Shown one piece after another: positions 1,747 through 51,630 of a stretch of DNA of 64,000 bases. The notes beneath the pieces are model-generated. The model was not told the origin of the DNA. It saw only the letters and a program-made list of their open reading frames with translations, and made no database searches. The DNA comes from a virus: positions 25,785 to 89,784 of IMG/VR virus record IMGVR_UViG_3300045988_087130. One strand, given 5' to 3'. The first letter of the stretch is position 1, and the number at the start of each line of letters is the position of its first letter. A program made the translations under genes and the position numbers.

Positions 1747-2044
1747 GAATTTTAGAAGTTGTTTTTGTTGCGTCCATTTTTTGGAAATACAAAATACAAG
1801 TACAGGAAATATTTTGAAATGCAAGAAAGGTAGCACTACGAAAGTACAAGGGAAGAGACTGACAGAAATTGCTGCAAGATGCAAAAACTACAAAGCGTGA
1901 GGCACACGTTAAAGAACATAGTAAGATGAAACTAAAGTTAAAGGTAATAGACAACAGGGGTATTTGAAAGAGAACGAAATGTGAAAAACTGCAAAACAAA
2001 TAGTAGATTCTATATAGTAAGATTAAAATATATTAATATAGATA

Positions 2045-2156
2045 ATAAACACATTAAATTATTTGCATATTACAATAATTCTTTGTATCTTTGCATCGTA
2101 ATTAAGAAACAAATGTTATTAATTAAAATGGTGAGACACACCACAAAAACTGTAAG
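2045..2156 (+). repeat. promoter-leader cassette, copy A of an intergenic repeat family
   Basis: About 85-90% identical to 7663-7780, 28648-28770, 51505-51630 and partly 35910-35975; carries TTTG(2062)/TAtcTTTG(2086) promoter and GGTGAGACACACC..AAAAACTGT leader 17 nt before ATG 2159. Confidence 0.7.
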
Positions 2157-2158
2157 AC

Positions 2159-2494
2159 ATGATGATTACATCAAATGATTGCTACAAGATTTTTCCAAGT
2201 ATCGAAAAGTTCTTCGAGAAGACCGAAAACAATTCGGTTGAAGAGTTGATTGATAATTTGCACCATGCTTTAGAGCGCAATGGTAATGCTCTTTGTGCAG
2301 ATGCAGTTTTTGACAAGGACAATAAAAAGTCTTTTTCCGTTTGGGTTTGCGGTAAGCATGGTAAGACAATGGATGAGCGAAATGACTTGCATACTTTGGA
2401 TGAAGTTAAACAAGCAGCTATCGAGCTTTCTACTAAGTTTGACTTGAACGATTATACAACGAACAAAATTCGTTATAAGAGTATCTGGGCTTAG
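2159..2494 (+). CDS. hypothetical protein
   Basis: 111-aa ORF directly downstream of cassette promoter. Confidence 0.45.
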   Translation: MMITSNDCYKIFPSIEKFFEKTENNSVEELIDNLHHALERNGNALCADAVFDKDNKKSFSVWVCGKHGKTMDERNDLHTLDEVKQAAIELSTKFDLNDYTTNKIRYKSIWA

Positions 2495-2600
2495 TGCCCA
2501 TACTCTTCAGGAGAAGTTAAATCGGTATTTTGGCGAAGAGGTTTGCCTCCTCGCCAATCTAATAAGGGAAAGGTGAGGCACACCTCAAAAACTGGTGGTA

Positions 2601-2909
2601 ATGACAAAGAAAGAAATTTTAAAAAAATGGCTTGAAGAACCAAAAGTGAGATATGGTAGCAATTCAAATTTCACTTTGGGATATGGTGATGGATGGGATT
2701 GGTGTAAAGATACCCTACGACCAGCTATTACGAAGAATGCGATGTTCCTTAGATTCTTAGAACATGGCTTCCGTGAGATAGAAGAGTTTTTGAAATCAAA
2801 AACCGGAAAGCCGAGCGAAGAGGATTGTTCCTTGTATTCTGTTGGATATAAGGATGGAGTCAAGGATGCCATAATTGCAATTAAGAATAGATTTGAAAAA
2901 TTAAAATAG
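2601..2909 (+). CDS. hypothetical protein
   Basis: ORF 2595-2909; first ATG at 2601; preceded by GGTGAGGCACACC..AAAAACTGG motif. Confidence 0.45.
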   Translation: MTKKEILKKWLEEPKVRYGSNSNFTLGYGDGWDWCKDTLRPAITKNAMFLRFLEHGFREIEEFLKSKTGKPSEEDCSLYSVGYKDGVKDAIIAIKNRFEKLK

Positions 2910-2917
2910 GAGGTTAA

Positions 2918-3208
2918 ATGGATTTAGGAAAGGCGATTAAGACAATTAGGGTAAGCAAAGGCTTGACCCAACGACAACTGAGTAAGGCTATCGGTTGTAG
3001 CGAGACAAACATGTTGTTTATGGAGACCGGAAGAACGTTTCCACGCAAGAGTAAGATTGATGCAATATGCAAGGTATTGGAGATTCCGATGTCTTATTTG
3101 TTGATGTTTGCTATTACACAGGATGATATTCCGGAAGATAAGCAGAGTTTGTACACAAGCATCGTTGAACCGATGCGAAATGAATTTATTAGGGAGTTAC
3201 TGCGATGA
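2918..3208 (+). CDS. XRE-family helix-turn-helix DNA-binding protein
   Basis: N-terminal LTQRQLSKAIGCSETNMLFMETG matches HTH_3 (Cro/CI-type) pattern. Confidence 0.6.
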   Translation: MDLGKAIKTIRVSKGLTQRQLSKAIGCSETNMLFMETGRTFPRKSKIDAICKVLEIPMSYLLMFAITQDDIPEDKQSLYTSIVEPMRNEFIRELLR

Positions 3209-3435
3209 AAAGATACTTTTATTTTTCCGCAAGATTCATTAAGAATGGACGTATGGCGTATTCCGCCGGAATATTAGAATCAGATGATGGGTATTTTGAT
3301 TTTGTTAAGGCCACAAAGGATATTGCACAAGAAGAAGGGGTTGATGTAAAAAAGGTTATCATAGTTTTTTGGACAGAGACCAATTCTATTATGATGGATA
3401 AGTTTAAAGCTTTAAAAGAAGAGGAAAATTGGTAG
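3205..3435 (+). CDS. hypothetical protein
   Basis: 76-aa ORF, ATGA overlap with upstream gene. Confidence 0.4.
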   Translation: MKRYFYFSARFIKNGRMAYSAGILESDDGYFDFVKATKDIAQEEGVDVKKVIIVFWTETNSIMMDKFKALKEEENW

Positions 3436-3617
3436 AATTTTACTTTGAAGGAAATATCATTTGGAAAAATTACGATTTCCATTTTATGCCTTGTGTAGGG
3501 GATAAAGTCGTGATTAACAATCTTACATACAAGATTAAGTCTCGTGTGTTCAAGTGCCAAGGAAAGACAGTTAAAGTTGTTTTAAAAAAGGTTGATAATG
3601 AAAATACGAATAGTTAA
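3429..3617 (+). CDS. hypothetical protein
   Basis: 62-aa ORF. Confidence 0.3.
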   Translation: MVEFYFEGNIIWKNYDFHFMPCVGDKVVINNLTYKIKSRVFKCQGKTVKVVLKKVDNENTNS

Positions 3618-3939: not shown

Positions 3940-3941
3940 TT

Positions 3942-6034: not shown

Positions 6035-6043
6035 AAAGAAGAA

Positions 6044-6360: not shown

Positions 6361-6810
6361 GAAAGCCATAATCTACCAAATACCCACGTCTCAAAGCCGT
6401 GCGATGTCCAGCGTGGGGGCGGGATTGTAAACTTAGGAGTCGCACGGCTTTATTTGGAAGTTTCCATAACTACAAATAGCCTATCGCTAATGGTTGTTCC
6501 CTTGGGCAAGGAGATAGTTAATACCGCATCGTAAGATGTGAACACTTAAAATTTGCCGACAACCATTGGCAAAAGCCCATCAGTCAGCGACAGAACCCCT
6601 TGGGCAAGGTGGGAATGGTGCACAGTCTTCAAATTCGCATCTGTCGCTGACAAACGGATGAGTGGCATTGGCAACTGAAAGCAATGCGACCCTCGCAAAC
6701 TTGGAGCGGATTTTCTGATTAAACATTCCGTGTACTGAGTCACTGGGGAGGATTTGGCACCAACAAGGGTTTAAATCCCTTGTCATCCACTAATTTTAAA
6801 AGGTTAAATT
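6361..6810. other. ORF-free GC-rich structured element (candidate structured ncRNA or replication origin)
   Basis: No convincing ORF on either strand; perfect inverted repeats AAAGCCGTGCGA/TCGCACGGCTTT and GTCAGCGACAG/CTGTCGCTGAC; direct repeat CCCTTGGGCAAGG x2; GC content above flanks. Confidence 0.3.
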
Positions 6811-7038
6811 ATGAATGAGTATTGTGAGAATTTGATTTCAAATGGAGTTCCTAGCTGGATAGTAGAGGAGGCTTATAAATTTACAATTGAGCCTTTGAAA
6901 TCAACAGAAGGCTTGGTAGGAATTGATAAGGAAAATAGTGAGCTATATAGAAATGTCATTATCGCAGCCTATATTGAGGGTGCTAGTGCTACATTGGTAA
7001 AAGTGCAAAAATATTATGGCGGTGAGGAACATAGTTAG
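6811..7038 (+). CDS. hypothetical protein
   Basis: 75-aa ORF. Confidence 0.4.
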   Translation: MNEYCENLISNGVPSWIVEEAYKFTIEPLKSTEGLVGIDKENSELYRNVIIAAYIEGASATLVKVQKYYGGEEHS

Positions 7039-7527: not shown

Positions 7528-7572
7528 TAGTAATCGTAGAAATCCATAATGCTATTTTGTTTTAAATGTTTG

Positions 7573-7613
7573 CCCCATCACTATATATAATAATGTAGTG
7601 GTGGGGATTTTTG
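7573..7613 (+). terminator. rho-independent terminator
   Basis: Hairpin CCCCATCACTA-loop-TAGTGGTGGGG followed by ATTTTTGTG. Confidence 0.6.
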
Positions 7614-7662
7614 TGTTAACGTCAGCAAATTACCCGTCTGTATTGTTATAGTATGTCAAATA

Positions 7663-7780
7663 ATAAAAGAAACACATTAAATAACTTGCATATTTCGATA
7701 ATTCTTTGTATCTTTGCATCGTAGTTAAGAAACAAATGTTATTAATTAAAATGGTGAGACACACCATAAAAACTGTAAGT
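7663..7780 (+). repeat. promoter-leader cassette, copy B
   Basis: Near-identical to copies A/C/D; -7 TAtcTTTG at 7709; GGTGAGACACACC at 7753. Confidence 0.7.
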
Positions 7781-10648: not shown

Positions 10649-10945
10649 ATGGATGAGAATTTCTTGAATGTGCTCTATATCGAGCACACAGACAAAATAG
10701 GCGTTTTAAAGGATGATAAGGACGAAAGGGTATCAATTATCCTTGGGACGGACAAAACGCTTGTAGAACGCAAAAGAGAGGGCAAAATGTATCTTCTTGT
10801 ACCTTTGGCAAAGTACCACACATTTGTCTGCAAGGGTAATAGTATTGATGTGGATGGTGAGCATATCAAGAGTGAAATCTTCTTCCGTAAGGACGGTGCG
10901 CAGTGGATTGAGATTGACAAAGAAACGTTATCTAAGGTAGCGTAA
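10649..10945 (+). CDS. hypothetical protein (intact paralog of frameshifted 25470-25768)
   Basis: 98-aa ORF; MDENFLNVLYIEHTDKIGVL... aligns with the 25470 copy. Confidence 0.45.
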   Translation: MDENFLNVLYIEHTDKIGVLKDDKDERVSIILGTDKTLVERKREGKMYLLVPLAKYHTFVCKGNSIDVDGEHIKSEIFFRKDGAQWIEIDKETLSKVA

Positions 10946-10975
10946 TATATTATATAGGTTACTTGGCAGCGAGTC

Positions 10976-11000
10976 GTGAGCGGGACACGACAGAAATATA
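10976..11000 (+). promoter_or_regulatory. variant copy of GGTGAG..CACAC element inside a hairpin, followed by a T-run
   Basis: GTGAGCGGGACAC inside stem TTGGCAGC...GCTGCCAA, then TTTTTTGTTT just before the antirepressor ATG. Confidence 0.3.
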
Positions 11001-11060
11001 AACTCCCACTGGTATGCTGCCAATAACCTTTTTTGTTTAACAATATAAATTAGTTTTAAA

Positions 11061-12041
11061 ATGACAGGATTCAAAAGTGAAAATGTCGAATTGGAGGCTT
11101 TGCCAGTAGCCTCATCAGTTTTAAACAACTTCAAAGAAGGAGGTGTTAGAGTTGTAGAAATTATTGAGCATGATGGCAAGCAAGCCGTGAACGCAAGGGA
11201 ACTACACCAAAAGTTGGGAAACAAGAGGCAATTTGCCGATTGGATTAAGCAGCGAATTGAGCAGTATGGATTTGTTGAAAATCAAGACTATGAGGTTTTT
11301 CACAAAATTGTGAAAAACTCAAATGATGTTGAAAATCAAGACTTTTCTTCATCTGATAATTTTGCCAAACGAGAAAAGGGAGGCCGAAGTCGTGTAGAGT
11401 ATGCTCTTTCGCTAGACATGGCTAAGGAGCTGTGCATGGTTGAGAACAACGAGAAAGGCAGGATGATTCGCAAGTACTTCATTGAAGTTGAGAAGAAGGC
11501 TAGAACACAAAATCCATTTACTATTCCTCAGACTTATTCTGAAGCCTTGCTTCTTGCTGCAAACCAAGCAAAGCAAATCGAAAAGCAGCAATTGGCATTG
11601 GAGCAGAAGAAAATTGAGAATGACAAGCTGGTTGCAGATGGTAAGCGCAAGGACGCAACCATAGTACGTATGAAGCCTAAAGAGGTATTCACGGATGCGG
11701 TTGCAGGTAGCAAGGGCAATTGCCTAGTTGGTGAGGTTGCGAAGTTGATAACTCAAAATGGCTACAAGATTGGCGAAAAGCAATTTTTTGCTTGGTTGCG
11801 GGATAATGGCTACCTTGGAAAGAAAGGAGAGCGTTACAATATTCCTAACCAGCAGTATATGGGTAAGAATCCTTTCTTTTATATCAAGAGAGGTGTGCGT
11901 CAGGGTGATAATGGAGTGTTGCACACGACAAGTACAACAATGCTGACACCAAAGGGACAGATTTATTTTGTAAACAAGTTCCTTGGAAAAGGAGGTTTAC
12001 AAGGTGATTTGTTTGCGAATGGTGAGGCACACGATAAATAA
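11061..12041 (+). CDS. phage antirepressor (AntA-like N-terminus, KilAC C-terminal domain)
   Basis: AVNARELHQKLGNKRQFADWIKQRIEQYGFVENQDYEV fits the AntA/AntB pattern; C-terminal GSKGNCLVGEVAKLITQNGYKIGEKQFFAWLRDNGYL fits KilAC/ANT. Confidence 0.7.
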   Translation: MTGFKSENVELEALPVASSVLNNFKEGGVRVVEIIEHDGKQAVNARELHQKLGNKRQFADWIKQRIEQYGFVENQDYEVFHKIVKNSNDVENQDFSSSDNFAKREKGGRSRVEYALSLDMAKELCMVENNEKGRMIRKYFIEVEKKARTQNPFTIPQTYSEALLLAANQAKQIEKQQLALEQKKIENDKLVADGKRKDATIVRMKPKEVFTDAVAGSKGNCLVGEVAKLITQNGYKIGEKQFFAWLRDNGYLGKKGERYNIPNQQYMGKNPFFYIKRGVRQGDNGVLHTTSTTMLTPKGQIYFVNKFLGKGGLQGDLFANGEAHDK

Positions 12042-12046
12042 ACTGT
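12021..12046 (+). promoter_or_regulatory. GGTGAGGCACAC..AAACTGTATTG element overlapping the antirepressor stop
   Basis: Exact motif; encodes C-terminal GEAHDK. Confidence 0.4.
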
Positions 12047-16099: not shown

Positions 16100-19000
16100 A
16101 TGGCAGAATTAAGATTCGATGTCAAAGCGAATTTCGAGCAGGTTACGAAACTTCGTTCCGAGTGTGAAAAATTGAGGGCTGAGTTGTTGAAGACCAATAA
16201 GTCAACCGACCCAGCTATTGTTGCGGATTTGACGGAAAAATATGCAGATGCAAGTAATCGCTTAAAGGACTTGACACAAGCTGCTTCAAGAGCCGCTTAC
16301 GTGATGTCTTCCGAGTTTAATAAAAGGATGCAGTCAGCATCAAAAGAAGTTTATAGCTATGAACTTCAAATGCAAGCAACAAAAGACCGTATAGAGAAAA
16401 TCCAACAGCAAATCACGAACAAGAGATTAACTCTTGGAGTAACTACGGATAAGTCATCCATAGATTCTTTACAGAAGAATATTGACTATTTGAAAGGTTC
16501 TTTGGCAGGACAAACTGCGCAATTAAAGAACCTAGAAGGAGGTGCTGTCGGTGCTCGTCAGACCTTGGAGAACATGCGGAATGAGTATGTTTTGTATGCA
16601 GGTTCAGCAAATCCGGCAAAAGATGCCACAAATATGTTGACCGATAGCATGAACCAAATGATAGAACGCATGAAGTCTGCTCCTACTGCCGGAGAGGGTA
16701 TGTCTAGCTTGTTTCAAAGGGTAACTGGTGATGCTCACATGCTTTCGGCTGCTTTGCTTGGCGGTTTAGGATTTGAACAACTGGCAAGTAGTATTTTCAA
16801 TACTCGCTCTCAATTCCAACAACTGGAAATATCTTTCAATACCATGCTTGGTAGTGCGGATAAGTCAAAGCAGTTAATGGATGAATTAATCGCTACAGCC
16901 GCAAAAACGCCTTTCGATATGTCCAGCATTACGAGTGGCGCAAAACAACTTTTGGCTTATGGTACGGAAGCGAAAGACGTAAATAAAACTCTAGTCCAGC
17001 TTGGCGATATTGCTTCGGGATTGAATATTCCGCTTGGAGACCTCGTTTACCTTTACGGAACGACCCTCGCACAAGGAAAAGTCTTTACAATGGACTTGCG
17101 TCAGTTCATGGGAAGAGGTGTTCCTTTGGCAGAAGAGTTGGGTAAAATCTTGCACCAAAACACAACGGAGGTTCAAGAGTCTGTTTCCAAGGGTAAGGTG
17201 ACATCAGACATCTTCAAGGAAGCCATCGCTAACATGACGCAAGCTGGCAGTCGCTTCGGAGGCCTGATGGAACAACAATCAAAGACCTTGGAGGGTCAGT
17301 GGAGTAACATTGGCGACTCCATCCAGCAAGCGTTCAACGAAATCGGCAAAAAATCCGAGGGCGTGTTCTCTAGTGGATTGTCAATTATTTCTGCTATGGT
17401 CGAGAATTGGCAGGAAGTCATTAAAGTAATTGGCGTTGCGGTCGTTGCCGTTGGCAGTTATCGTGCATCATTAATGGCGGCTGCTTCTATCCGTAAGGCA
17501 GAAGAGGCTCAGCAAGCCGATGATATGATGAAGGGGATTGATGCTGAAATCAAGCGTTTGCAAGACTTAGAAAACTCAAACTACAAGTCATTGGGTAAGG
17601 ATAAAAAGCAAGAACGAGTAAATAAACAACAAGACTTGGCAAGTGTTGTTGGAGATACCACTGTGTCCGATGATTTTGTAAAGGCAAGATTAGATGCAGC
17701 AGAGCAAGAGGGCATTATTACGGCACAAATGCGTTCCCAATTAGAGATGAAACGTGAACTCTTGCAGGCTCAGCAACAAGCAACAGCACAAAGCCAGATA
17801 GAACTTGACGAAGAAAAGAGGAAGACCGAGGAACTGCGTCAACAAAAAATAGAGTCTCTTAAAGATGATTTGAAGACTACTACAGAGAAAATATCAAATC
17901 TTGATGATAGGGATGTAGAGTTGGCTAGACAATATACAGCAGCCTTGAATGATTTGCAAGATGCCCAAGATGCCTTTGCTGAGGCTCAAAAATTAGTTGA
18001 GGAAACCGCTGATGGTGCAAACTTAGCTTTTGACGCAGAGGGTAATGCCGTGAATGCACTAGAAGCAAAGGAACGTTTGGCCACCGCTGCGAAGAAAGTG
18101 AATACTGCTCAAACAAATGTTTCGACAATTGCAAGTCAGCAAAGAGGAACTGCGCTTATTCGTGAGCAATTACAAGAGAGACAAGCAACACTACAAACGA
18201 AGTTGAATTCTGTTAGTCAAGCTACCAATACGACTACGAAAAAGGCTAGTACTTTAGCTACGGCTGCTTCAACGGTAAAAAATGCCATCCATACTGCAAG
18301 TGTTAAAATAATGACAACTGCTGAATTAATGCTTAGTAATGCTGTAAAATCCACAACTATGGCCTTAAAGGGAATGTGGGCTGCTATGCTTGCAAATCCG
18401 ATTACTGGTATTATAACATTGGTAACAACGCTTGCTAGTGCCGTTGCAATGTTCGGAGGTGAAGAGGAAGATATTTCTATTGACACAAAGCATTTTGGAG
18501 ATTCTGCTGAAAACACAAGGGCGAAAGTTGATGGCTTGCTTAACGTAATGAGGTCTTCTAAGGAAGGAACTGATGCTTACAACAAAGCTAAAGAAGAACT
18601 TATCCAAACATACGAGCAGTTCGGGATTAAGTGTGATGCCGAAAAGGACAATTTAACAACACTAAAAGGAAAGCATGATGAATTTGTTGCAACCTTACAA
18701 TTGGAGAATGCTGAAAGAGAAAAGGCTAATGCTTTAATGTCTGCCACTTCCCAATATACAGAAGCAAGAAACAAAGAAGATGACAATTTTAGCAAAGACT
18801 TATCCGGTCATTGGTATCAAGGTGGGCAACATGTAGATAAGGAAGATATAACATCAATACAAATGATGTATAATTCCATAGCAACAGATGAGGTTTTAGA
18901 TAGGCTGGCTAAGTTGAAGCAAAGAGTAGATGATAGCACATTGTCTTACAAGGAGCATATAGATGCTTTTAATATTTACACAAATGCAGTTAAAAAGACA

Positions 19001-25408: not shown

Positions 25409-25416
25409 TAGATTTC

Positions 25417-25439
25417 GTGAGGCACACACTAAACTGCAC
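25417..25439 (+). promoter_or_regulatory. GTGAGGCACACAC..AAACTGCAC element
   Basis: Exact motif 30 nt upstream of ATG 25470. Confidence 0.4.
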
Positions 25440-25469
25440 CGGACTTTGGACATTAAATATTTAAGAGAT

Positions 25470-25768: not shown

Positions 25769-25778
25769 CAATATATAA

Positions 25779-25805
25779 GGTGAGGCACACCCGAACAACT
25801 GCACA
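25779..25805 (+). promoter_or_regulatory. GGTGAGGCACACC..AACAACTGCAC element
   Basis: Exact motif 10 nt after the 25768 stop. Confidence 0.4.
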
Positions 25806-26289: not shown

Positions 26290-27060
26290 ATGACAGGTGA
26301 TGGAGAAGAAAGAATCACCTCGTTGGAAATTGCTGAAATGGCAAACAAACGACATTCCGATGTTATGCGCTCTATCCGAAATATGGAGAAAGCATGGCTT
26401 CAAGTTAACGGACGCAATTTTGCGCTCGTTGATTATCAAGACCAAAAAGGAGAACATAGACCATGTTATTCTCTTACAAAGAAAGAAAGCCTTTATATTG
26501 CTACCAAGTTTGATGATGTAATGCGTGCAAAGCTCATCAATCGTTGGGAGGAGTTGGAAATTAAGCATCGTGAGCAGGTGCAATCCGAGCAAATGAAGCC
26601 TCAGCAAAGTTTCTTGCAAGACAAGTTGACGGTTGCCAATTGGGTAATGGACTCGTTGCGATATAGTGATGCCGCACGATTGCAGTTGGTGAGTCAGATA
26701 GCAGAACCTTATGGTGTTCCGGTTCCCGATTACGTCCACGCTCCGAATGGTGCTTCGCACGCAGTCAGTGAATTATTGAAAGAACGTGGTGTTGAGTTAT
26801 CAGCCATCAAGTTCAATAAGCTGGCATTGGCTGCTGGCTTATTGGAAGAGAAGACCCGAAAGGGTACGCACGGCAAGGTTCACAAGTACTATTCCGTCAC
26901 AGAGAAAGGATTGGAGTATGCTTTGAATGACATCTACAAGGATGTGCCTGGACAAACCATTCCAAAGTGGTATGACAACAAGTTTGGGGAGGTGTTGGAA
27001 ATCATCGGTTACAAGCCATCTAGTCAAGGAGATATGTTTGCAAGCGGTGAGACACACTAG
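26290..27060 (+). CDS. Rha-family phage regulatory protein
   Basis: N-terminal ITSLEIAEMANKRHSDVMRSIRNM fits the Phage_pRha signature; C-terminus ...QGDMFASGETH parallels that of 11061-12041; a 23-codon uORF (26222-26293) overlaps the start. Confidence 0.65.
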   Translation: MTGDGEERITSLEIAEMANKRHSDVMRSIRNMEKAWLQVNGRNFALVDYQDQKGEHRPCYSLTKKESLYIATKFDDVMRAKLINRWEELEIKHREQVQSEQMKPQQSFLQDKLTVANWVMDSLRYSDAARLQLVSQIAEPYGVPVPDYVHAPNGASHAVSELLKERGVELSAIKFNKLALAAGLLEEKTRKGTHGKVHKYYSVTEKGLEYALNDIYKDVPGQTIPKWYDNKFGEVLEIIGYKPSSQGDMFASGETH

Positions 27061-27070
27061 AACAACTGTA
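27046..27070 (+). promoter_or_regulatory. GGTGAGACACAC..AACAACTGT element overlapping the Rha stop codon
   Basis: Exact motif; encodes C-terminal GETH. Confidence 0.4.
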
Positions 27071-28647: not shown

Positions 28648-28770
28648 TTAAAATGCAAAAGAAATACATTAAATAATTTGCATATTTCGATAATTCTTTG
28701 TATCTTTGCATCGTAATTAAGAAACAAGGTTACTAATTAAAAAGGTGAGACACACCGTAAAAACTGTGAT
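28648..28770 (+). repeat. promoter-leader cassette, copy C
   Basis: Near-identical to copies A/B/D; TAtcTTTG 28701; GGTGAGACACACC 28744; ATG 28776. Confidence 0.7.
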
Positions 28771-28997: not shown

Positions 28998-29044
28998 GAA
29001 TAACAAAGGGGATATGAAATCCCCTTACAATATAAATTTAGAGC

Positions 29045-29069
29045 GTGAGACACACGTAAAACTGTATTG
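29045..29069 (+). promoter_or_regulatory. GTGAGACACAC..AAAACTGTATTG element
   Basis: Exact motif; the AAACTGTATTG tail is identical to the copy at 12036. Confidence 0.4.
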
Positions 29070-29163
29070 AAACAATGAAAAAGGTATTCACAATTGAGAA
29101 TGCGTTAGCGTTTTTATTTGCTCTTGAAATAGTATCATTAATTTATTTTCTTGGATAGGGCTT

Positions 29164-29382: not shown

Positions 29383-29791
29383 CGATTTCAACGCTGCCGA
29401 TGAATTTGTCGTTGAGGCAATGATGCAAGATGGCAAATTCAAGGTTATCGGCAAGGTTATTATTGATAATAATCTTCTGAATGATGATGATTTGGAAACT
29501 ATCTGGGATTATGCCAACTGGGAGACGAACGGCTATGAAAAGATGGTTGTCTCTAACGGAGTGTACAAAGGCTTGAAAGCATTTAGCGATGGGCGTTTGT
29601 TCTATGTAATTACTGATGATGAGGTTGGAGTGGTAAATGACAATATCATGGTACGTAAGCATTATGATGTCAACAATGGCTATTATATTAAGTCATCAAG
29701 GTTGCACAAGGAACAATCCAGGGACTTATGGTGCTTTGGTAGCCGTGAGACTATTGAGAACGAATATAGGTCAAATAAAAAACTGTTTTAA
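29363..29791 (+). CDS. hypothetical protein
   Basis: 142-aa ORF. Confidence 0.4.
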   Translation: MRPIEISDFNAADEFVVEAMMQDGKFKVIGKVIIDNNLLNDDDLETIWDYANWETNGYEKMVVSNGVYKGLKAFSDGRLFYVITDDEVGVVNDNIMVRKHYDVNNGYYIKSSRLHKEQSRDLWCFGSRETIENEYRSNKKLF

Positions 29792-34888: not shown

Positions 34889-34961
34889 GCTGCATTAGAC
34901 AAGTGGTTAAGTCGCCAGTTTTTCACGCTGGTATTCAAAGGTTCGAATCCTTTATGCAGTA
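34889..34961 (+). tRNA. tRNA-Glu (anticodon TTC)
   Basis: Hand-folded: acceptor GCTGCAT/ATGCAGT, anticodon stem CCAGT/GCTGG with loop TTTTCAC, T-arm AAAGG-TTCGAAT-CCTTT. Confidence 0.6.
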
Positions 34962-34967
34962 CAAATT

Positions 34968-35038
34968 TGCCCTATGGTGTAATGGCAACACTACAGGTTT
35001 TGGTTCTGTCATTAGTGGTTCGAATCCGCTTGGGGCAA
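34968..35038 (+). tRNA. tRNA-Gln (anticodon TTG)
   Basis: Acceptor TGCCCTA/TGGGGCA, anticodon stem ACAGG/TCTGT with loop TTTTGGT, T-loop TTCGAAT. Confidence 0.55.
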
Positions 35039-35069
35039 CAAGGTGATATTTGATATGTATTCCACAAAT

Positions 35070-35154
35070 GGTGCAATATTCAAGCGGCTAAAGAAGACTG
35101 ACTGTAAATCAGTTCCCATTGCGGGTTCGGTGAGTTCGAATCTCTCTTGCACCA
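35070..35154 (+). tRNA. tRNA-Tyr (anticodon GTA), type II with long variable arm
   Basis: Acceptor GGTGCAA/TTGCACC; D-loop AGCGGCTAAA; anticodon loop CTGTAAA; variable arm CCC-ATTGC-GGG; T-loop TTCGAAT; 85 nt. Confidence 0.65.
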
Positions 35155-35178
35155 CAAGAGTAACTTTGTCAGATTACG

Positions 35179-35250
35179 GGGAATGTAGCTCAGAAGTAGA
35201 GCACTTGGTTCGTAACCAAGGGGGCATTGGTGCAACTCCAATCATTCCTT
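35179..35250 (+). tRNA. tRNA-Thr (anticodon CGT)
   Basis: Acceptor GGGAATG/CATTCCT, D-arm GCTC-AGAAGTA-GAGC, anticodon stem CTTGG/CCAAG with loop TTCGTAA; unusual T-loop TGCAACT. Confidence 0.5.
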
Positions 35251-35253
35251 TAC

Positions 35254-35325
35254 GCTTTCGTAGCTCAGTGGCAGAGCATAGGATTTTTAATCCTAGGGTC
35301 GAAGGTTCGAATCCTTCCGTTGGCA
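35254..35325 (+). tRNA. tRNA-Lys (anticodon TTT)
   Basis: D-arm TAGCTCAGTGGCAGAGC, anticodon stem TAGGA/TCCTA with loop TTTTTAA, T-arm GAAGG-TTCGAAT-CCTTC; acceptor stem has two internal mismatches, so ends are uncertain. Confidence 0.5.
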
Positions 35326-35498
35326 CAATGATACACAAGAAGAGAGCCGTGATGTTTGTTCTGTTGGAATCTCGGACATCTGTCAACGGATAACGTAGGA
35401 AGCAGATGGGGCGAATAAAGTTGTGAATAAGCTTATGAACTAGGGAAGCAAGCGGAATGGCCTCTTTTTTGTGCTTCATTTGATGGTTTAACGAAAAA

Positions 35499-35909: not shown

Positions 35910-35975
35910 TAAAATACAAAAGAAAAACATTAAATAACTTGCATATTTCAAAACTTATTCGTATCTTTGCATCGT
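35910..35975 (+). repeat. promoter cassette, partial copy E
   Basis: AAAATACAAAAGAAAAACATTAAATAACTTGCATATTTC..TAtcTTTGCATCG shared with copies A-D; the leader is diverged. Confidence 0.55.
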
Positions 35976-36025: not shown

Positions 36026-36068
36026 GGTGAGAGCGACACCAAGGGGTAAGACCCGAAACAACTAGCAC
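36026..36068 (+). promoter_or_regulatory. variant GGTGAGAGCGACACC...AAACAACTAGCAC element
   Basis: Motif variant with an inserted GCG, 9 nt upstream of ATG 36077. Confidence 0.35.
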
Positions 36069-39215: not shown

Positions 39216-40304
39216 ATGGGAAAATCACTTTATTTTCAGTTGGTCAATAAATACTTCCCACAACTTGTTGCAAGTGTAGTAGAGAAGTTGAACGGCAAGA
39301 ATCAGACCACATTGACCTATATGTACCGAGACCACTTGACTAACACATATAGTCAGGACGGACGATGGGCATCAATTACTGCGGAATATACACGAGTTGC
39401 TGCTGACGTTGTATCAATGGATGCAGAACTCCCATTGAAGAGCCGTGATAAGGTTTCAACCGCTGAGGGGCAAATCCCAAAGGTTGGTATGAAGCTTTAC
39501 ATGACAGAGAAGCAGCTTAAGGATTTGGATAACATGATTGCGCAACGTTTGCCTCAACCACAGATTTTGCGTAACTTGTTTGCAGACCTTCCTCGTTGTA
39601 TTCAGGCGGTTTACGAGCGTATTGAAGATATGTTCCTCAGTGAGCTGTCAACAGGTGTAGCTTTGGCAACTCGTTCCGGTGGTACTGGTGTCCGAGTTGA
39701 TGTAGGTTTTGCCGAGAAAAATAAGTTTGGTCACGGTGCTAAGGCTTGGGATGCAGAGGACGCAACCCCACTTGATGATATTCAATTGGTTTACGACAAG
39801 GCGATGGAAGACCAAAACACCATCACTACTTGTTACCTTGATGATTACACAATCAAATTGCTTGGCAAGAACAAGCAGGTTCGTGCTCAGTTTGCCTTCA
39901 ATCAAGGCATTGCAATTAATAGTAATAGCAATATTCCTATTTTGAGCTTTGAGCAGATTGCGTCTATCTTTAGAAATAAGTGGCAGACCAACTTGGTACG
40001 TGTAGCCCGTACAATCAAGACCGAGCTTAATGGCAAGAAGGGAACACACAATCCTTGGGCTAAGGGTCACATGACCTTTACATGCTATGATAACCTTGGT
40101 GATTTGTTCTGGACTAACGTAGCCGAAGCTACAAGACCAGTTGCAGGTGTTACTTATCAGTCAGCCGATGAGTATATCTTGGCTAGCCGTTATTCTACTA
40201 ACGACCCACTCCGTGAGTTCACTAGCTCACAAGCAATGGTTGTTCCTATCTTGAATAACGTTGATGCCATCTACTCTTTGGACTCAACACAAGCAGTAGG
40301 TTAG
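39216..40304 (+). CDS. putative major capsid protein
   Basis: 362-aa ORF following the scaffold; assigned by size and position only. Confidence 0.4.
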   Translation: MGKSLYFQLVNKYFPQLVASVVEKLNGKNQTTLTYMYRDHLTNTYSQDGRWASITAEYTRVAADVVSMDAELPLKSRDKVSTAEGQIPKVGMKLYMTEKQLKDLDNMIAQRLPQPQILRNLFADLPRCIQAVYERIEDMFLSELSTGVALATRSGGTGVRVDVGFAEKNKFGHGAKAWDAEDATPLDDIQLVYDKAMEDQNTITTCYLDDYTIKLLGKNKQVRAQFAFNQGIAINSNSNIPILSFEQIASIFRNKWQTNLVRVARTIKTELNGKKGTHNPWAKGHMTFTCYDNLGDLFWTNVAEATRPVAGVTYQSADEYILASRYSTNDPLREFTSSQAMVVPILNNVDAIYSLDSTQAVG

Positions 40305-45295: not shown

Positions 45296-46029
45296 TAACA
45301 GCAAGTATGAATTCGGGTGAGATGCGTAGGGTACGAAACTTAGATGAAGCTAGAATCTATGAGTTTCAGATGCGAAAAGCTAATGAGCTTAAACGTGAAA
45401 TGAGAAAGCAGAGTGTAAGACAGATAACCAAGACATACGAATTGGTTACACGGAATGCCGATTATTTCATCGTTGTAGGTGTAAAGCATGGAGGTGTCTT
45501 TGTCTCAGGTGTATTCATTTATCTGAAGGAAACTAACGAGTATATTCCTATGAGCAGAAATGAGGGGTATAGCGAGGATTGTTTTGCTATGAGCGTTCAT
45601 TTTCTGAAGAGATATGCAGAAAGGTATTTGAAAAAGGATTTGCCGATAGCAAAGATATTACAAAAGATATATACATCGTTTACAGGTGCGGTTCAGCTTT
45701 ATAGTGACGACAAGACAAAAAGGGTGGTGTTTGCTATTCCGGAAGGGCTTATACTCACAGAATACGAGCAAGAAAAGCGTATCATCCACTACAAAACCTT
45801 TGTAAGCATGGATATGCTAAAGAAGACACAAATGCAAAGTTACGAGAAGATTAGTGCATTTCTAATGGAATCATGTCAGCAAATAGCTATGGCAAGAGAA
45901 GCAGGAAATGACGAAAAGCTGGGCGTTGTGTACAGAAGGTTTTATGATGATATTGATTTGATAGATACAAAGGAGGCGCAAGCCATATATTCAAGTTTCT
46001 TCGAAAAAGGAGGTAACAATGAAAGATAA
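45286..46029 (+). CDS. hypothetical protein overlapping the C5-MTase stop (candidate restriction partner, unproven)
   Basis: 247-aa ORF starting 10 nt inside the MTase gene end; no recognisable motif. Confidence 0.4.
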   Translation: MRMITASMNSGEMRRVRNLDEARIYEFQMRKANELKREMRKQSVRQITKTYELVTRNADYFIVVGVKHGGVFVSGVFIYLKETNEYIPMSRNEGYSEDCFAMSVHFLKRYAERYLKKDLPIAKILQKIYTSFTGAVQLYSDDKTKRVVFAIPEGLILTEYEQEKRIIHYKTFVSMDMLKKTQMQSYEKISAFLMESCQQIAMAREAGNDEKLGVVYRRFYDDIDLIDTKEAQAIYSSFFEKGGNNER

Positions 46030-46522
46030 ATGTATAACAAGGTTTCTAGGTGATATTAAGCCTATAGAGAATTACGAAAGGTATTATGTTAGCAAGCTGG
46101 GACATGTCTTTACTATTGGGAGAACGTCTCAATTAAAGGAAATCGCACCTTGCAAGACACCAAAAGGTTATTTGAAGGTATGGCTTTACAAGAACGGAAA
46201 GCGAAAGATGTTCTATGTTCATCGTTTGGTAGCGCAGGCATTCTTGGAGAATCCAGATGCGTTGCCGATGGTGAATCATAAGGATTTCGACAAGACGAAT
46301 AACGATGTAGATAACTTGGAGTATTGTACCGCAAGATACAATGTGATTTATTCTGCTATAGCAAAGAAAACCTCTTCCGAATACTTGGGTGTGACTTGGA
46401 ATAAGAGTGTAAGAAAATGGCAAGCTCAGTACCAGGTAGGTAAGAAGAAAACTTATATCGGATGCTTTGGTACGCAAGAAGAGGCTCACGAAGCTTATGT
46501 TAACGCTATAAAAGAGATTTGA
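46019..46522 (+). CDS. HNH homing endonuclease (HNH_3) with AP2 DNA-binding domain
   Basis: VNHKDFDKTNNDVDNLEY (H-x-D...NN...NLE HNH_3 core) and YLGVTWNKSVRKWQAQYQVGKKKTYIGCFGTQEEAHEAY (AP2). Confidence 0.65.
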   Translation: MKDKCITRFLGDIKPIENYERYYVSKLGHVFTIGRTSQLKEIAPCKTPKGYLKVWLYKNGKRKMFYVHRLVAQAFLENPDALPMVNHKDFDKTNNDVDNLEYCTARYNVIYSAIAKKTSSEYLGVTWNKSVRKWQAQYQVGKKKTYIGCFGTQEEAHEAYVNAIKEI

Positions 46523-46523
46523 C

Positions 46524-47237: not shown

Positions 47238-47967
47238 GATTTATCAAGTTGATTGTCTGGATGGTATGAGCAAGATTGATGACAAGTCCGTCTCGCTTAT
47301 ACTCACAGACCCTCCATATGAAATTTCAAGGGATTCCAATTATGCAAAGTCCGCTCCTACTGGTAAAGATACTGATAGATTCCGCATATCTATCGACTTT
47401 GGAGACTGGGATAAACAGGAAGCATTTGATATAGGCTCTATGATAAAAGAATCCTACAGGTGCTTGAAAGATGGTGGATATATAGTTTGTTTCTATGATT
47501 TGTGGAAGATTGGGGTCGTAAAGGATGCGATGATTAATGTCGGATTTAAACAAATTAGATTTATAGAATGGATAAAAACAAATCCTGTTCCAATAAATAG
47601 TAAGACAAACTATCTCACAAACGCAAGAGAGGTCGCTGTGTGTGGGGTGAAAGGTAAAAATCCTATCTTTAAAAGCGAATATGACAATGGAGTATATAGC
47701 TTTCCAATCTGTCGTGATAAGGGGAGATTTCATCCTACCCAGAAGCCTGTTAGTCTTTTCAGAAGCATTATAAACAAGCATTCCTGCAAAGGAGATATTG
47801 TACTAGATTGCTGTATAGGTAGTGGAACTACGGCTATTGCGTGTATTCAAGAAAATCGTAATTTTATTGGTTTTGAAACTAATAGAGAGTTTTACGACAA
47901 AGCAAACGAGAGAATAGAAAATGAATTAATGATAAAGCAAGATAGTTTATTTAGTAATGAAAGTTAG
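47215..47967 (+). CDS. beta-class N6-adenine/N4-cytosine DNA methyltransferase
   Basis: TDPPY motif; C-terminal LDCCIGSGTTAIAC. Confidence 0.75.
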   Translation: MDMLEIDKIYQVDCLDGMSKIDDKSVSLILTDPPYEISRDSNYAKSAPTGKDTDRFRISIDFGDWDKQEAFDIGSMIKESYRCLKDGGYIVCFYDLWKIGVVKDAMINVGFKQIRFIEWIKTNPVPINSKTNYLTNAREVAVCGVKGKNPIFKSEYDNGVYSFPICRDKGRFHPTQKPVSLFRSIINKHSCKGDIVLDCCIGSGTTAIACIQENRNFIGFETNREFYDKANERIENELMIKQDSLFSNES

Positions 47968-48692
47968 TGGGTGATATGATGGAGCTAAATAGAATTTATC
48001 AAGGTGATTGCCGAAAGCTTCTAAAGCAGCTAGACGATGAATGTATAGACCTAGTATGCTCTGATGTTGCTTATCCGGTACAAGCTAGAGGTGGGCGCAG
48101 TAGTATGAGTGGATATTGGACGGATTCTCAAACTAGAAAAGGTAAGATATTCAAGAGTAATGACATAGATATTTCGGAGTATATCAACGAACTATATCGA
48201 GTACTAAAGGATAAGACTCATTGCTATCTTATGTGTAACGACTATAATCTGATGCACTTTCTAAATGAGATAGGACGGAGTGAGTTTCACTTCACAAAGT
48301 GTTTAATATGGGATAAATGCACTAAGGTGTGTGGAACGTATTATATGAACCAAAAAGAGTATATCATTATGCTTCGTAAGGGAGGTGGAAAGCCAATTAA
48401 TGAGTTTGGCACATCTGACATTCTGAGTGTTCCTATTCCAACCAACAAACGCAGGGATAAAGAAGGATTGATCAATCAGACCGAAAAACCAGTTAAGTTG
48501 ATGGAGATTCTAATCAGAAACTCAACAAATGTAGGTGATGTTGTTCTTGACCCATTTATGGGGAGTGGCACAACAGCAAGGGCTTGCGTTAATCTTGAAA
48601 GAAAGTATATAGGCTTCGAAATAGACCAGCGGCAAGTAGATTTTTCCAATAACGAATTAAAGAGCATGAGTAGGCAATTAAGTCTGTTTTAA
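47967..48692 (+). CDS. beta-class DNA methyltransferase homolog with atypical catalytic motif SDVAY
   Basis: Aligns with its neighbours (CSDVAY in place of TDPPY); C-terminal LDPFMGSGTTARAC is intact. Confidence 0.6.
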   Translation: MGDMMELNRIYQGDCRKLLKQLDDECIDLVCSDVAYPVQARGGRSSMSGYWTDSQTRKGKIFKSNDIDISEYINELYRVLKDKTHCYLMCNDYNLMHFLNEIGRSEFHFTKCLIWDKCTKVCGTYYMNQKEYIIMLRKGGGKPINEFGTSDILSVPIPTNKRRDKEGLINQTEKPVKLMEILIRNSTNVGDVVLDPFMGSGTTARACVNLERKYIGFEIDQRQVDFSNNELKSMSRQLSLF

Positions 48693-48696
48693 AACA

Positions 48697-48921: not shown

Positions 48922-48922
48922 T

Positions 48923-49764: not shown

Positions 49765-49798
49765 AATGGTTTAACTGATAGAAATAGATTTATAGAAG

Positions 49799-50569
49799 AT
49801 GGAATTAAATAAGATATATAATGAGGATTGTCTAGTGGGAATGAAACAGATTCCGGACGCAAGTGTGGATTGTATTATCTGCGATTTGCCGTATGGTGCT
49901 CTCAATAAAAAGAGTGAGGGCGGTGGCTGGGATAGCATTATTCCGTTTGAACCATTGTGGAAGGAATATCTGCGCATAACCAAACCAAATGCAGCCATTA
50001 TTCTTTTCTGTCAAGGTATGTTTACCGCACAGCTTATGATGTCGCAGCCGAAACTCTGGAAATATAATCTTATTTGGAGCAAGCAGCGGGTAACAGGCTT
50101 TTTGAATGCCAACAAGATGCCTCTGCGCTCACATGAGGATATTGCAGTATTCTATCGGAAACAACCTATCTACAATCCTCAGATGGTAAAATGTGCGCCA
50201 CATCAAAGGAATCATCGAAGGGGCGATGGCTCTCATAGTTTGAAGCGAGGTTGTTATGGCGATCATAAAGAAGTGCCTACTATCATATCAGATGAGAAAT
50301 TCCCAAAGAGCATTATCTGCTTCGACAAAGAACATTCTGCCAACACCTTCCACCCCACTCAAAAGCCAGTCGCTCTTATTCAGTACCTCATCCGTACCTA
50401 CTCCAACGAGGGCGACACCATCTTAGACAACTGCATGGGCAGCGGTACTACCGCTATCGCAGCCATCCGTGAAAAGCGAAATTTCATCGGGTTCGAGTTA
50501 AATAAAGAATATTACGACAAGGCTTGTAAGCGCATTAAGTTAGAAATTATGCAACCCAGCCTATTCTAA
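49799..50569 (+). CDS. beta-class N6-adenine/N4-cytosine DNA methyltransferase
   Basis: CDLPY catalytic motif; C-terminal LDNCMGSGTTAIAA. Confidence 0.75.
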   Translation: MELNKIYNEDCLVGMKQIPDASVDCIICDLPYGALNKKSEGGGWDSIIPFEPLWKEYLRITKPNAAIILFCQGMFTAQLMMSQPKLWKYNLIWSKQRVTGFLNANKMPLRSHEDIAVFYRKQPIYNPQMVKCAPHQRNHRRGDGSHSLKRGCYGDHKEVPTIISDEKFPKSIICFDKEHSANTFHPTQKPVALIQYLIRTYSNEGDTILDNCMGSGTTAIAAIREKRNFIGFELNKEYYDKACKRIKLEIMQPSLF

Positions 50570-50588
50570 AATGTAAATAGTTGAGAAT

Positions 50589-50975
50589 ATGAAAAAAGAA
50601 GATAGACTTAAAATATATCGCAAATACGATGGGCATTGTGCTTATTGCGGCAAGAGTATAGAGTATAAGGATATGCAGGTTGACCATCTTGTTCCGAAGA
50701 ATCGAGGTTGTTACTCTCGGTGGAGCGACAAGGAGGGAAGGTTTGTCGTTTTTCATGGCGATGACTGTATGGAGAACTATATGCCATCTTGCAGGTCTTG
50801 TAATCTTCGTAAGCGTGATATGAGTTTGGAACAATTTCGCTCAGAGATTACTAGACAGGCTAAAGGATTGCTTAATGGTAAGGCTTCTTTCCAAGTAAAG
50901 ATGTCGCTCGCTTATGGCTTAATAGAAGAGCACTTTGATAAACAAATTGAGTTCTATTTTGAGAAATTTAAATAG
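50589..50975 (+). CDS. HNH endonuclease (paralog of 63110-63520)
   Basis: CAYCG...DHLVPKNRG...CRSCNLRKRD HNH zinc-finger core; about 60% identical to 63110-63520. Confidence 0.6.
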   Translation: MKKEDRLKIYRKYDGHCAYCGKSIEYKDMQVDHLVPKNRGCYSRWSDKEGRFVVFHGDDCMENYMPSCRSCNLRKRDMSLEQFRSEITRQAKGLLNGKASFQVKMSLAYGLIEEHFDKQIEFYFEKFK

Positions 50976-50983
50976 TTGAGGAT

Positions 50984-51391
50984 ATGAAGAAGAAAGGATA
51001 TTACGAATACGACCCTGTTATCTATCCAAGAAGGTTATGTGTCGCTATTGGAATGAACCAAGAGGATGCCAACAAGTGTTTTGAAGGTAGAAATGGCGAG
51101 GTTTTGAGGGTTGATTTCTCTAATTCTGACGCAGCAACCTACGATAACGTTAGAGAAAAGGCGAATAATAAGCTTTGTTCATTTGTTAATTTTGCAAGCA
51201 AGGATTCTATGAGGATGGGGACTTGTTGTCATGAAGCTTCTCACGTCTGCGATGCCATCGAGGATGCTATTGATATGAAGCACGGCGGCGAGCCTTCTGC
51301 CTACTTGATAGGTTGGATTGCATCTTGCATCAACAAGGCTCGTTTGGGTATTGGTGATTTCGTTGAAATTAAAGATAAGGAAGAAAAGTAG
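50984..51391 (+). CDS. hypothetical protein
   Basis: 135-aa ORF. Confidence 0.4.
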   Translation: MKKKGYYEYDPVIYPRRLCVAIGMNQEDANKCFEGRNGEVLRVDFSNSDAATYDNVREKANNKLCSFVNFASKDSMRMGTCCHEASHVCDAIEDAIDMKHGGEPSAYLIGWIASCINKARLGIGDFVEIKDKEEK

Positions 51392-51421
51392 CTCAAAGAC
51401 AAAATACCTTTGAGTGCTTTA

Positions 51422-51462
51422 CCCCATCACTATATATAATAATGTAGTAGTGGGGATTTTTG
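51422..51462 (+). terminator. rho-independent terminator (copy of 7573-7613)
   Basis: CCCCATCACTA-loop-TAGTAGTGGGG followed by ATTTTTGTG. Confidence 0.6.
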
Positions 51463-51504
51463 TGTTAACATCAGCAAATTATTTGCTCATATTATTATAG
51501 TGTG

Positions 51505-51630
51505 TTAAAAGATAAAAGAAATACATTAAATAACTTGCATATTTCGATAAATCTTTGTATCTTTGCATCGTAATTAAGAAACAAGGTTATTAATTAAAAA
51601 TGGTGAGACACACCATAAAAACTGTAATAA
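51505..51630 (+). repeat. promoter-leader cassette, copy D
   Basis: TAtcTTTG 51558; GGTGAGACACACC 51602; together with the terminator forms a roughly 210-bp repeat matching 7573-7780. Confidence 0.7.

Follow-up and report, generated by a model that had tools for sequence, protein, structure and literature searches.

We report that a short repeated element of gut phages, noticed in a 64,000-nt stretch of viral DNA (IMG/VR record IMGVR_UViG_3300045988_087130, positions 25,785 to 89,784; this whole stretch is called the window and its own numbering is used throughout), is, judging from its sequence variation, an RNA structure whose stem is selected for pairing rather than for sequence. The predicted fold is a very small pseudoknot that lies in 5' untranslated regions (UTRs) at a fixed, Shine-Dalgarno (SD)-like distance from the start codon and that is often carried as a portable promoter-UTR module. 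A first-pass annotation of the window had listed thirteen copies and had offered two explanations, a recognition site for a phage-encoded transcription factor (late promoter, antitermination signal or translational operator in an SD-less host) or a boundary for modular recombination. We consider the chances about even that the element is a portable signal of the translation-initiation region, docking the 30S ribosomal subunit or gating access.

The element recurs far beyond chance

The core GTGAGNCACAC is present in 11 exact copies in the window (1897, 2131, 2573, 7754, 12022, 25417, 25780, 27047, 28745, 29045 and 51603), all of them on the + strand and none on the - strand; dinucleotide-preserving shuffles predict 0.06 copies. 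Two variants with bigger loops lie at 10975 (CGTG-AGCGGGA-CACG) and 36026 (GGTG-AGAGCGA-CACC). The thirteen copies are thus real, each found within 0-2 nt of its annotated position, and the judgement that they are too recurrent for chance holds. In ten of them N-GTG-AGRCA-CAC-N' is followed, after 2-5 nt, by A(A/C)AACTG-Y; the closing pair of the stem is G-C in seven copies, C-G in three, G·T in one and mismatched in two. We built a covariance model from 80 diverse units and searched the window with it without filters. Ten copies scored E<=0.0015, and copy 1896, which has no tail, scored E~0.1; all matches were on the + strand, and the E-values are rough for so short a model. Neither this search nor a scan with alternative stems revealed further convincing copies in the window.

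The stem is conserved as base pairs

Since the harvest of units had required a paired stem, the stem was tested by pattern counts over all of IMG/VR. Complementary stems abound, with at least 120 matches for GTG/CAC and at least 120 for GGG/CCC, while the non-complementary chimeras GTG/CCC and GGG/CAC are nearly absent with 2 and 4 matches, respectively. These database-wide double-mutant cycles indicate that the stem must pair. The fourth stem pair (4-16), which the harvest did not impose, is paired in 60/80 aligned units by six pair types and, among units selected in a strand-neutral way, is Watson-Crick in 301/446. At the same position G·U exceeds A·C by 31 to 9, which argues that it is the sense transcript that folds. 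The fifth pair is near random, so that the conserved stem comprises 4 bp. In the window phage the stem is N-GUG/CAC-N'; elsewhere any complementary stem serves. The tandem arrays of Clostridia-type phages described below use CGG/CCG, GTG/CAC, GTGC/GCAC, GGGG/CCCC and GAG/CTC, always with the loop AGACA and the tail AACTG.

Two other readings of the hairpin were rejected. A consensus terminator scan calls weak - strand terminators at 2128-2144, 7751-7767 and 25778-25792 because an A-run precedes the hairpin on the + strand; these might incidentally damp antisense transcription, and a - strand terminator as the meaning of the hairpin is disfavoured by the comparison of G·U with A·C. A conserved upstream open reading frame (ORF) beginning at the ATG or GTG of the stem was dismissed as well, since the ATG exists only in some of the repeated promoter cassettes, the reading frame changes with the length of the linker, and the stems show covariation.

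The loop pairs with the downstream tail

The loop is exactly 5 nt long (AGNCA) in 80/80 aligned units and its last base directly joins the 3' strand of the stem. After an A-rich linker of 6-9 nt that ends in AAAC follows U-G-N', with which the last three bases of the pentaloop A-G-N-C-A can pair. The element is accordingly predicted to be an H-type pseudoknot of about 27 nt, with a stem 1 of 4 bp, a loop 1 consisting of AG, a stem 2 of 3 bp, no loop 2 (L2) and an A-rich loop 3 (L3) of 6-9 nt, dimensions that match those of the smallest known pseudoknots. Loop bases A8, G9, C11 and A12 as well as the AAC-UG of the tail are invariant, whereas the middle base of the loop often differs, as in AGGCA (88 stretches) and AGUCA (90 stretches).

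An earlier test with a strict tail was weakly informative (2 matches for loop A with tail C, 5/88 for loop G with tail C), and it was the addition of a scan for U-loops that settled the loop-tail pairing. With near-identical contexts collapsed into 83 clusters, the tail base tracks the loop base (chi-square p=5e-7). Loop A is followed by tail U in 39 cases, by A in 5, by G in 6 and by C in 0 (pairable 39/50); loop G by U in 12, A in 11, C in 7 and G in 3 (pairable 19/33); and loop U by A in 8, G in 2, U in 1 and C in 0 (pairable 10/11). The pair types comprise A-U, U-A, G-C, G·U and U·G, tail C never occurs with loop A or loop U, and at one orthologous site the pair is G-C in one phage and U-A in another. 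Larger loops can also have matching tails, as in AGCGGGA/AAAC-UCCC (window copy 10975 and a relative) and AGCCAUA/UAUG; a permutation test over all non-canonical loops fell short of significance (12, with permutations averaging 5.2 and reaching 13). Taken as sequence covariation, the support is strong for stem 1 and good though incomplete for stem 2.

The element keeps a fixed distance to start codons and often follows promoters

A -7 box of the type TAnnTTTG is found within 120 nt upstream of 96/248 unique units. Its distance peaks sharply at 40-49 nt (51 units, about 2 expected), with a second cluster at 15-29 nt, and the element therefore often lies about 30 nt into the primary transcript. 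Roughly 60% of the units have no promoter of their own.

A start codon lies just downstream in 136/189 (72%) of the GTG-class units. Among the 173 units without an SD sequence, the distance from the G of ACUG to the A of AUG is 8, 9 or 10 nt in 17, 71 and 37 cases (125/173; mode 9). These 125 well-spaced units precede 51 unrelated protein families, and their spacers vary in sequence with a preference for A at -6 (28/37) and a purine at -3 (35/37). Where the spacing is modal, the AAAA run falls at -16 to -13 and the UG at -11/-10. Measurements in Flavobacterium johnsoniae identified A-6, A-3 and, close to protein S1, an A-run at -14 to -11 as features that favour initiation (PMC6847099). The spacer preferences match these determinants, so that the element forms part of an otherwise optimal Bacteroidetes initiation region, with its L3 overlapping the position of the A-run. 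Of the functions named in the first-pass annotation, a translational operator in an SD-less host thus came closest: the spacing to AUG is as sharp as that of an SD site, while the function is something we infer.

Units that do use an SD sequence are arranged differently. Here either the tail leads directly into the SD, whose first G is then the G of ACUG (ACUGGAGG), or AAAGGAG comes after the last unit of an array; the spacing to the start codon in these phages is 12-17 nt. Overlap with stop codons does not define a general class, as only about 13/189 GTG-class units lie at a stop.

Comparison with relatives at mosaic joints, which the annotation had proposed, shows that 29-62 BLAST homology blocks end at each of the copies 2130, 7753, 28744 and 51602, and that 9 blocks start at copy 2572. 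Because blocks end at these four copies, which sit in repeated promoter cassettes, the element is the 3' edge of a portable promoter-UTR module. This says how it is carried, not what it does. As a description, the proposed recombination boundary therefore stands; selection, as far as the covariation tells, acts on the RNA fold.

Phages, mobile elements and a host gene carry the element

The element is not confined to the window genome. Pattern scans of IMG/VR placed it in at least 120 stretches, mostly gut contigs of 60-130 kb, and hundreds of gut phage contigs carry it overall. A second group consists of smaller, SD-using phages of Clostridia, in which 2-4 tandem units stand between an intrinsic terminator and a scaffold-like gene. 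Among GTDB species representatives, at least 120 stretches matched; as about 100 chance matches are expected in 596 Gb, only matches with a plausible context were kept. The carriers are Bacteroidota (Alistipes, Prevotella/Segatella, Bacteroides, Parabacteroides, Rikenellaceae, Tannerella, Chitinophagales) and Clostridia (Lachnospiraceae, Blautia, Eubacterium and others).

In Bacteroidota, the downstream genes are entry genes of mobile elements, encoding a ParB_N/HTH_ParB protein of about 700 aa, ArdC, SSB, XRE-type HTH proteins and ORFans. The host gene cysS, a bona fide cysteinyl-tRNA synthetase gene, carries the element together with its own promoter in 4 Bacteroidia genomes. Its leaders show a clear footprint: conserved promoter, variable segment, invariant element, variable spacer, ATG. 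In the (pro)phages of Clostridia, the element stands almost exclusively before one gene, the product of which matches PF06810 (Phage_scaffold/GP20) with E=5.7e-7, a score that does not reach Pfam's cutoff.

When every ORF of the window was compared by tblastn with 1.25 Mb of DNA from Clostridia-type loci, almost no proteins proved common to the two kinds of phage. A shared phage-encoded recogniser was considered and rejected, since proteins are shared only sporadically and the best candidate, DUF6275, is present in about 10% of the array loci. DUF6275 (PF19791) is an 81-aa protein encoded at 55174-55419 of the window, with up to 66% identity between the window phage and Clostridia-type phages. 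Loci with the protein are L043 (3275-3487), L006 (1158-1370), L115, L311, L005, L326, L060, L289, L249 and L335; in 10/12 loci its gene precedes the pseudoknot array by 160-920 nt and has the same orientation. No relative of it was found in the PDB, and a single-sequence AlphaFold model with a pLDDT of 48 was unusable.

Every Clostridia-type array is preceded by a conserved leader (L005 at 6700-6830; equivalents in L006, L011, L035, L241 and others). It consists of an intrinsic terminator over the stop of the preceding gene, followed by a covarying hairpin GYC-CGAA-GRC with AAACUAC ('unit 0'), which resembles the element in its tail and differs in its loop. Some Clostridia-type phages also have a nucleotide-conserved block, AAAGGCGGTGATCCGAAATCTCCC, that ends the upstream ORF.

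Comparison with known RNAs

No Rfam 15 family matched the window copies, single units or 17 array loci at gathering or permissive thresholds; only tRNAs and noise were returned. A sequence search of the literature gave only chance matches in unrelated organisms. The generic kind of structure, a small mRNA pseudoknot near the ribosome-binding site, is already known. What is new with respect to Rfam and the literature searched is the family itself, its SD-like precision in an SD-less phylum and its spread over phages, integrative and conjugative elements (ICEs), a housekeeping gene and a second phylum.

Like the element, the preQ1-I riboswitch (RF00522) is a tiny H-type pseudoknot: P1 is short, L1 has 2 nt, and a 3' tail rich in A (…AAAAAACU…) runs along P1 and ends in bases that pair with the loop and adjoin the ribosome-binding site or extend into it; protein S1 was reported to bind preQ1-I (PMC7708055). 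The element differs by its 5-nt loop, the lack of L2 and of a ligand-pairing C, and its loop-tail helix NCA:UGN'. Its downstream genes are unrelated to queuosine (51 families, with ORFans, ParB, ArdC, SSB, CysRS and scaffold). The RF00522 model did not match the window at the gathering threshold, nor, at E<=10, the region 1850-2650 with its three copies or the array leaders.

Protein S1 binds H-type pseudoknots with nanomolar affinity, and a 5' pseudoknot is essential for the standby translation of tisB (PMC7708055). Translation of timP also needs a pseudoknot (PMC11228461). The element shares with these RNAs, and with the pseudoknots selected in vitro (SELEX) on S1, an H-type fold 5' of the start region, which in their case is required for 30S loading. 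However, the tisB and timP structures belong to single genes of enterobacteria and lie about 100 nt from a sequestered SD, whereas the element forms a family of about 27 nt with hundreds of copies at a fixed 8-10 nt from AUG in hosts that do not use SD sequences. The SD sequence itself is a likeness in function only: a short mRNA signal with a mode of 9 nt to the start and 72% of cases within ±1 nt, whose place the element occupies. Unlike an SD, it is an intramolecular fold and not a complement of the 16S 3' end, and it serves few genes instead of most. In SD-using phages of Clostridia it lies just 5' of a normal SD.

The arrays of the Clostridia phages share their location with GP20-a (RF02991) and GP20-b (RF03003), candidate cis-regulatory RNAs directly upstream of the GP20/scaffold gene, yet neither model matched at any of the 17 array-bearing loci. 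Six unnamed csRNAs upstream of GP20 (PMC10690425) have the same position, and it is by genomic position only that they were compared. The leader of T4 gene 32 likewise contains an H-type pseudoknot that controls translation of a phage gene; it is a single nucleation site for gp32 autoregulation about 40-70 nt upstream, whereas the element is dispersed over many genes. PeSLs (promoter-early stem-loops) are mobile cassettes of T4-type phages. They are alike in combining an early promoter and a stem-loop in a repeated module, found next to small variable ORFs and at the points where homology breaks off. The element differs as a covarying pseudoknot tied to the start codon that also occurs without promoter, in ICEs and before a host gene.

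A proposed role in translation initiation and its alternatives

If the element is a signal for translation initiation, it would act on 30S recruitment or on the positioning of the start site. In the mode that we prefer, the RNA would be folded in advance and would offer the ribosome a docking or standby site on its mRNA exit/platform side, with protein S1 as a plausible contact; alternatively, the fold would gate access to the A-run. Universal host machinery would suffice, which would permit mobile elements to move the element from gene to gene and from host to host. A phage-specific factor would not be required, because the element is found in ICE genes, in cysS of uninfected genomes and in phages of a second phylum. 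As a more specific and decidedly tentative proposal, mobile elements of the SD-less Bacteroidota may carry a structural substitute for the SD sequence, which would dock to the 30S platform or to S1 as a ruler of 8-10 nt that fixes the start codon in the P-site and which would be reused upstream of the SD in phages of Clostridia.

Several points weigh against a role as an initiation signal. The effect could be inhibitory, as the A-run acts positively when single-stranded and a folded pseudoknot would tie it up. Two to four tandem units before one Clostridia gene exceed what a start-site ruler needs, and many Firmicutes do not have protein S1 as a regular part of their ribosomes. Of the 13 window copies, five or six lie away from start codons, and three overlap stops. 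As to the fold, C11-G28 and A12-U27 never vary, so that two of the three pairs of stem 2 cannot be tested, and the third is unpaired in 9-42% of the GTG-class clusters and in most terminal units of the Clostridia arrays. Finally, most phage matches derive from one large gut data set (3300045988), and because this set dominates, the lineages are not fully independent despite the clustering by context.

We regard it as unlikely, but worth weighing, that the pseudoknot is instead a regulated operator or switch, in which a trans-acting RNA-binding protein or a ligand would stabilise the fold and shift translation down or up. The invariant loop bases A8, G9, C11 and A12 and the tail AAC-UG exceed the needs of a generic fold, and the architecture recalls preQ1-I, with its A-rich L3, its 3' strand at the ribosome-binding site and, in SD-using units, a G of ACUG with which the SD's run of G begins. 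Arrays of 2-4 units would suit cooperative protein binding. Synthesis of the P22 scaffold is autoregulated post-transcriptionally, and by analogy the tandem arrays of Clostridia could be operators for scaffold autoregulation. The small conserved DUF6275 protein, whose gene occurs in the window and precedes 10 arrays by 160-920 nt, would be a conceivable partner, yet it accompanies only about 10% of the array loci. Moreover, 51 unrelated families together with cysS and ICE genes suggest no common ligand logic or phage protein, a 5-nt loop without L2 leaves no preQ1-I-like pocket, and no Rfam riboswitch model matches even at E<=10.

The layout 'upstream hairpin or terminator, element, start' recurs in the window (copies 2572 and 29044) and in every Clostridia array, each of which follows an intrinsic terminator. 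It would fit an mRNA stabiliser or processing boundary, with the pseudoknot as a roadblock 5' of the ribosome-covered region that would shield the downstream cistron from 5'-end-dependent decay (RNase J exonuclease, RNase E/Y scanning) once a polycistronic transcript has been cleaved. Tandem units would then be successive barriers, scaffold and capsid genes need more product than the upstream portal genes, and the lack of an own promoter in about 60% of the units is in keeping with such a role. We nevertheless think it rather improbable, since the element lies about 30 nt from the 5' end of primary transcripts and not at the end, and since its precision of ±1 nt relative to AUG is tighter than a roadblock should need.

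Signals acting on transcription, be it a DNA promoter or operator for a phage factor, an N4-type hairpin promoter or an antitermination RNA like nut or put, are very unlikely. The position some 30 nt past early-type promoters is indeed reminiscent of nut/put sites, the hairpin is short and has a pentaloop, and two copies precede hairpins at gene ends. But the hairpin comes before the tail, 64 kb hold 10-13 copies, many of them inside operons, and the fixed distance runs to AUG and not to terminators. The transcription-factor site of the first-pass annotation was not borne out: the stems change in a compensatory way and G·U outnumbers A·C, which points to an RNA fold and not to a site in duplex DNA, and the element occurs in ICEs, before the single host gene cysS and in a second phylum. 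Nor is a late promoter supported, as the element lies downstream of host-type promoters. This position also argues against an N4-type hairpin promoter, as does the fact that the only giant ORF (16100-22228, 2042 aa) encodes a tape measure protein and not a virion RNA polymerase. Lastly, a patch of about 25 bp of shared homology for swapping gene modules is hardly credible as the primary role despite the 29-62 homology blocks that end at the four cassette copies and the 9 that start at 2572, because any portable promoter-UTR module should show such ends at its 3' edge just as well, complementarity kept while the sequence changes is the opposite of what a homology patch needs, and the cysS leaders keep the element in a non-mosaic host context.

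Individual copies in the window

All copies described here are on the + strand. The element stands on about 6% of the genes of the window phage, and the genes behind it are small ORFans without a Pfam or PHROG match. That copies mostly precede start codons is true of seven (2130, 2572, 7753, 28744, 29044, 36026 and 51602), whose tails end 6-12 nt before an ATG, and of an eighth, 25416, by way of a TTG; copies 10975 and 25779 are not start-proximal. Overlap with stop codons had been noted for two, the ends of the Ant gene (12021) and the Rha gene (27046), and these are correct, but the count is three with copy 1896. Copies away from starts score lower with the covariance model (16-31 bits) than the others (30-40 bits).

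Four copies sit in a repeated promoter+UTR module of about 125 nt. Its -7 box TAnnTTTG starts 43-44 nt before the hairpin, or 36 nt counted from the end of the box; the hairpins end 17-21 nt before the ATG. The hairpin is present in the minimum-free-energy fold of every cassette UTR. In cassette 1 the box is TATCTTTG at 2086..2093, with equivalents at 7709-7716, 28701-28708, 51558-51565 and 35962-35969. The canonical element GGTG-AGACA-CACC-ACA-AAAAC-TGT follows at 2130..2153 (38.3 bits) before ATG 2159 of a 111-aa ORFan. The canonical copies of cassette 2 (7753..7776; 40.2 bits; ATG 7786, 51 aa), cassette 3 (28744..28767; 37.0 bits; ATG 28776, 73 aa) and cassette 4 (51602..51625; 40.2 bits; ATG 51635, 124 aa) are arranged alike, and a + strand terminator lies at 7573-7606, upstream of copy 7753. 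A fifth cassette has the promoter part in common with these four and a different UTR. Its variant at 36026..36065 consists of GGTG-AGAGCGA-CACC, an extra hairpin GGGU-AAG-ACCC and then GAAACAACUAG; ATG 36077 opens an amidoligase-like ORF of 309 aa.

Two further canonical copies follow hairpins. The one at 2572..2595 (loop AGGCA, tail CUGG; 30.1 bits; ATG 2601, 102 aa) starts 17 nt after the hairpin GGCGAAGAGG..CCTCCTCGCC, and that at 29044..29065 (closing pair C-G; 33.8 bits; ATG 29075) stands 18 nt after a hairpin at 29006-29026. A 27-codon ORF at 29075-29158 (MKKVFTIENALAFLFA…), below the ORF cutoff of 35 aa, starts 10 nt after the latter copy. The tail AAACTGTATTG does occur twice as annotated, at 12040 and 29059 and not at 12036 and 29058.

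The degenerate copy CGTG-AGGCA-CACG at 1896..1908 (16.1 bits, E~0.1) has no canonical AAAACUG tail, and the TGA stop (1898-1900) of ORF 1739-1900 falls within its hairpin. At 12021..12046 (30.7 bits) the element covers the last codons GEAHDK* and the stop of the AntA/KilAC antirepressor ORF 11061-12041, and at 27046..27069 (27.8 bits; closing pair G·U) the last codons GETH* and the stop of the Rha-family ORF 26290-27060. The hairpins at 12021-12041 and 27046-27060 are read in the same frame and end two otherwise different regulators; both ends show a shared QGD(L/M)FA(N/S) peptide and then G-E-A/T-H from the hairpin. This may be a shared C-terminal module or the trace of recombination at the element.

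The big-loop variant CGTG-AGCGGGA-CACG at 10975..11007 begins 29 nt after the stop of ORF 10649-10945. Its loop GGGA complements UCCC (11004-11007) after AUAAAC in an alternative 4-bp loop-tail helix, and the relative L073 has the same arrangement. Copy 25416..25437 (23.2 bits) has the loop AGGCA, the tail CUGC with a G-C loop-tail pair and a mismatched C/A closing pair; an in-frame TTG at 25446 lies exactly 9 nt, the canonical spacing, after the G, and an ATG follows at 25470. The copy at 25779..25802 (28.9 bits; loop AGGCA, tail CUGC) is an orphan with no credible downstream start.

The window phage

The window belongs to an uncultivated tailed phage with every gene on the + strand. Its host is probably Segatella/Prevotella, a lineage of Bacteroidota, since close relatives (91-94% identity) include contigs binned with a Segatella copri metagenome-assembled genome. 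It encodes the tape measure protein at 16100-22228 (phrog_9959, E=2e-171; PF20155), a major head protein at 39216-40304, the AntA/KilAC and Rha regulators and ThyX-like proteins. About 17 kb with regulatory and early-type genes separate the tape-measure-like gene from the head gene block downstream of it, an order unusual for a tailed phage. Five clustered tRNA genes (Glu, Gln, Tyr, Thr, Lys) and an RtcB RNA ligase gene (34889-35326 and 60240-61442) together suggest that the phage counters tRNA-targeting host defences.

Two HNH/NUMOD homing-endonuclease-like ORFs, one with AP2, lie at 46019-46522 and 61575-62360; one is inside the structural gene block, and alignments of relatives break at 45308-46131 and 47257-47973. 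A TnpB-type ORF (29637-30938, 433 aa) has OrfB_IS605 and a Cas12f1-like TNB domain. Because several relatives (about 92-94% identity) align to about 29775 and resume at 30955, the segment of roughly 29776-30954 is read as an insertion. It looks like one of the IS200/IS605 family, is found in a few others (e.g. L067) and is absent from most relatives. A marginal covariance-model match at 29750-29788 beside it was rejected, there being no intact element at the junction.

Significance

Bacteroidota are a dominant gut phylum, their mRNAs lack SD sequences, and their choice of start codons is only partly understood, through A-rich determinants and low secondary structure. The element is a testable candidate for a structure-based initiation signal in phages, conjugative elements and at least one housekeeping gene. 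It could be used as a portable expression part for Bacteroides/Segatella engineering and as a marker for true start codons and small ORFs in gut phage genomes, such as the 27-codon ORF at 29075. The analysis also illustrates that database-wide counts of double-mutant cycles can establish even RNA motifs so short that standard structured-RNA pipelines are not suited to them. If true, a structural substitute for the SD sequence would represent a previously unrecognised class of bacterial ribosome-recruitment signal.

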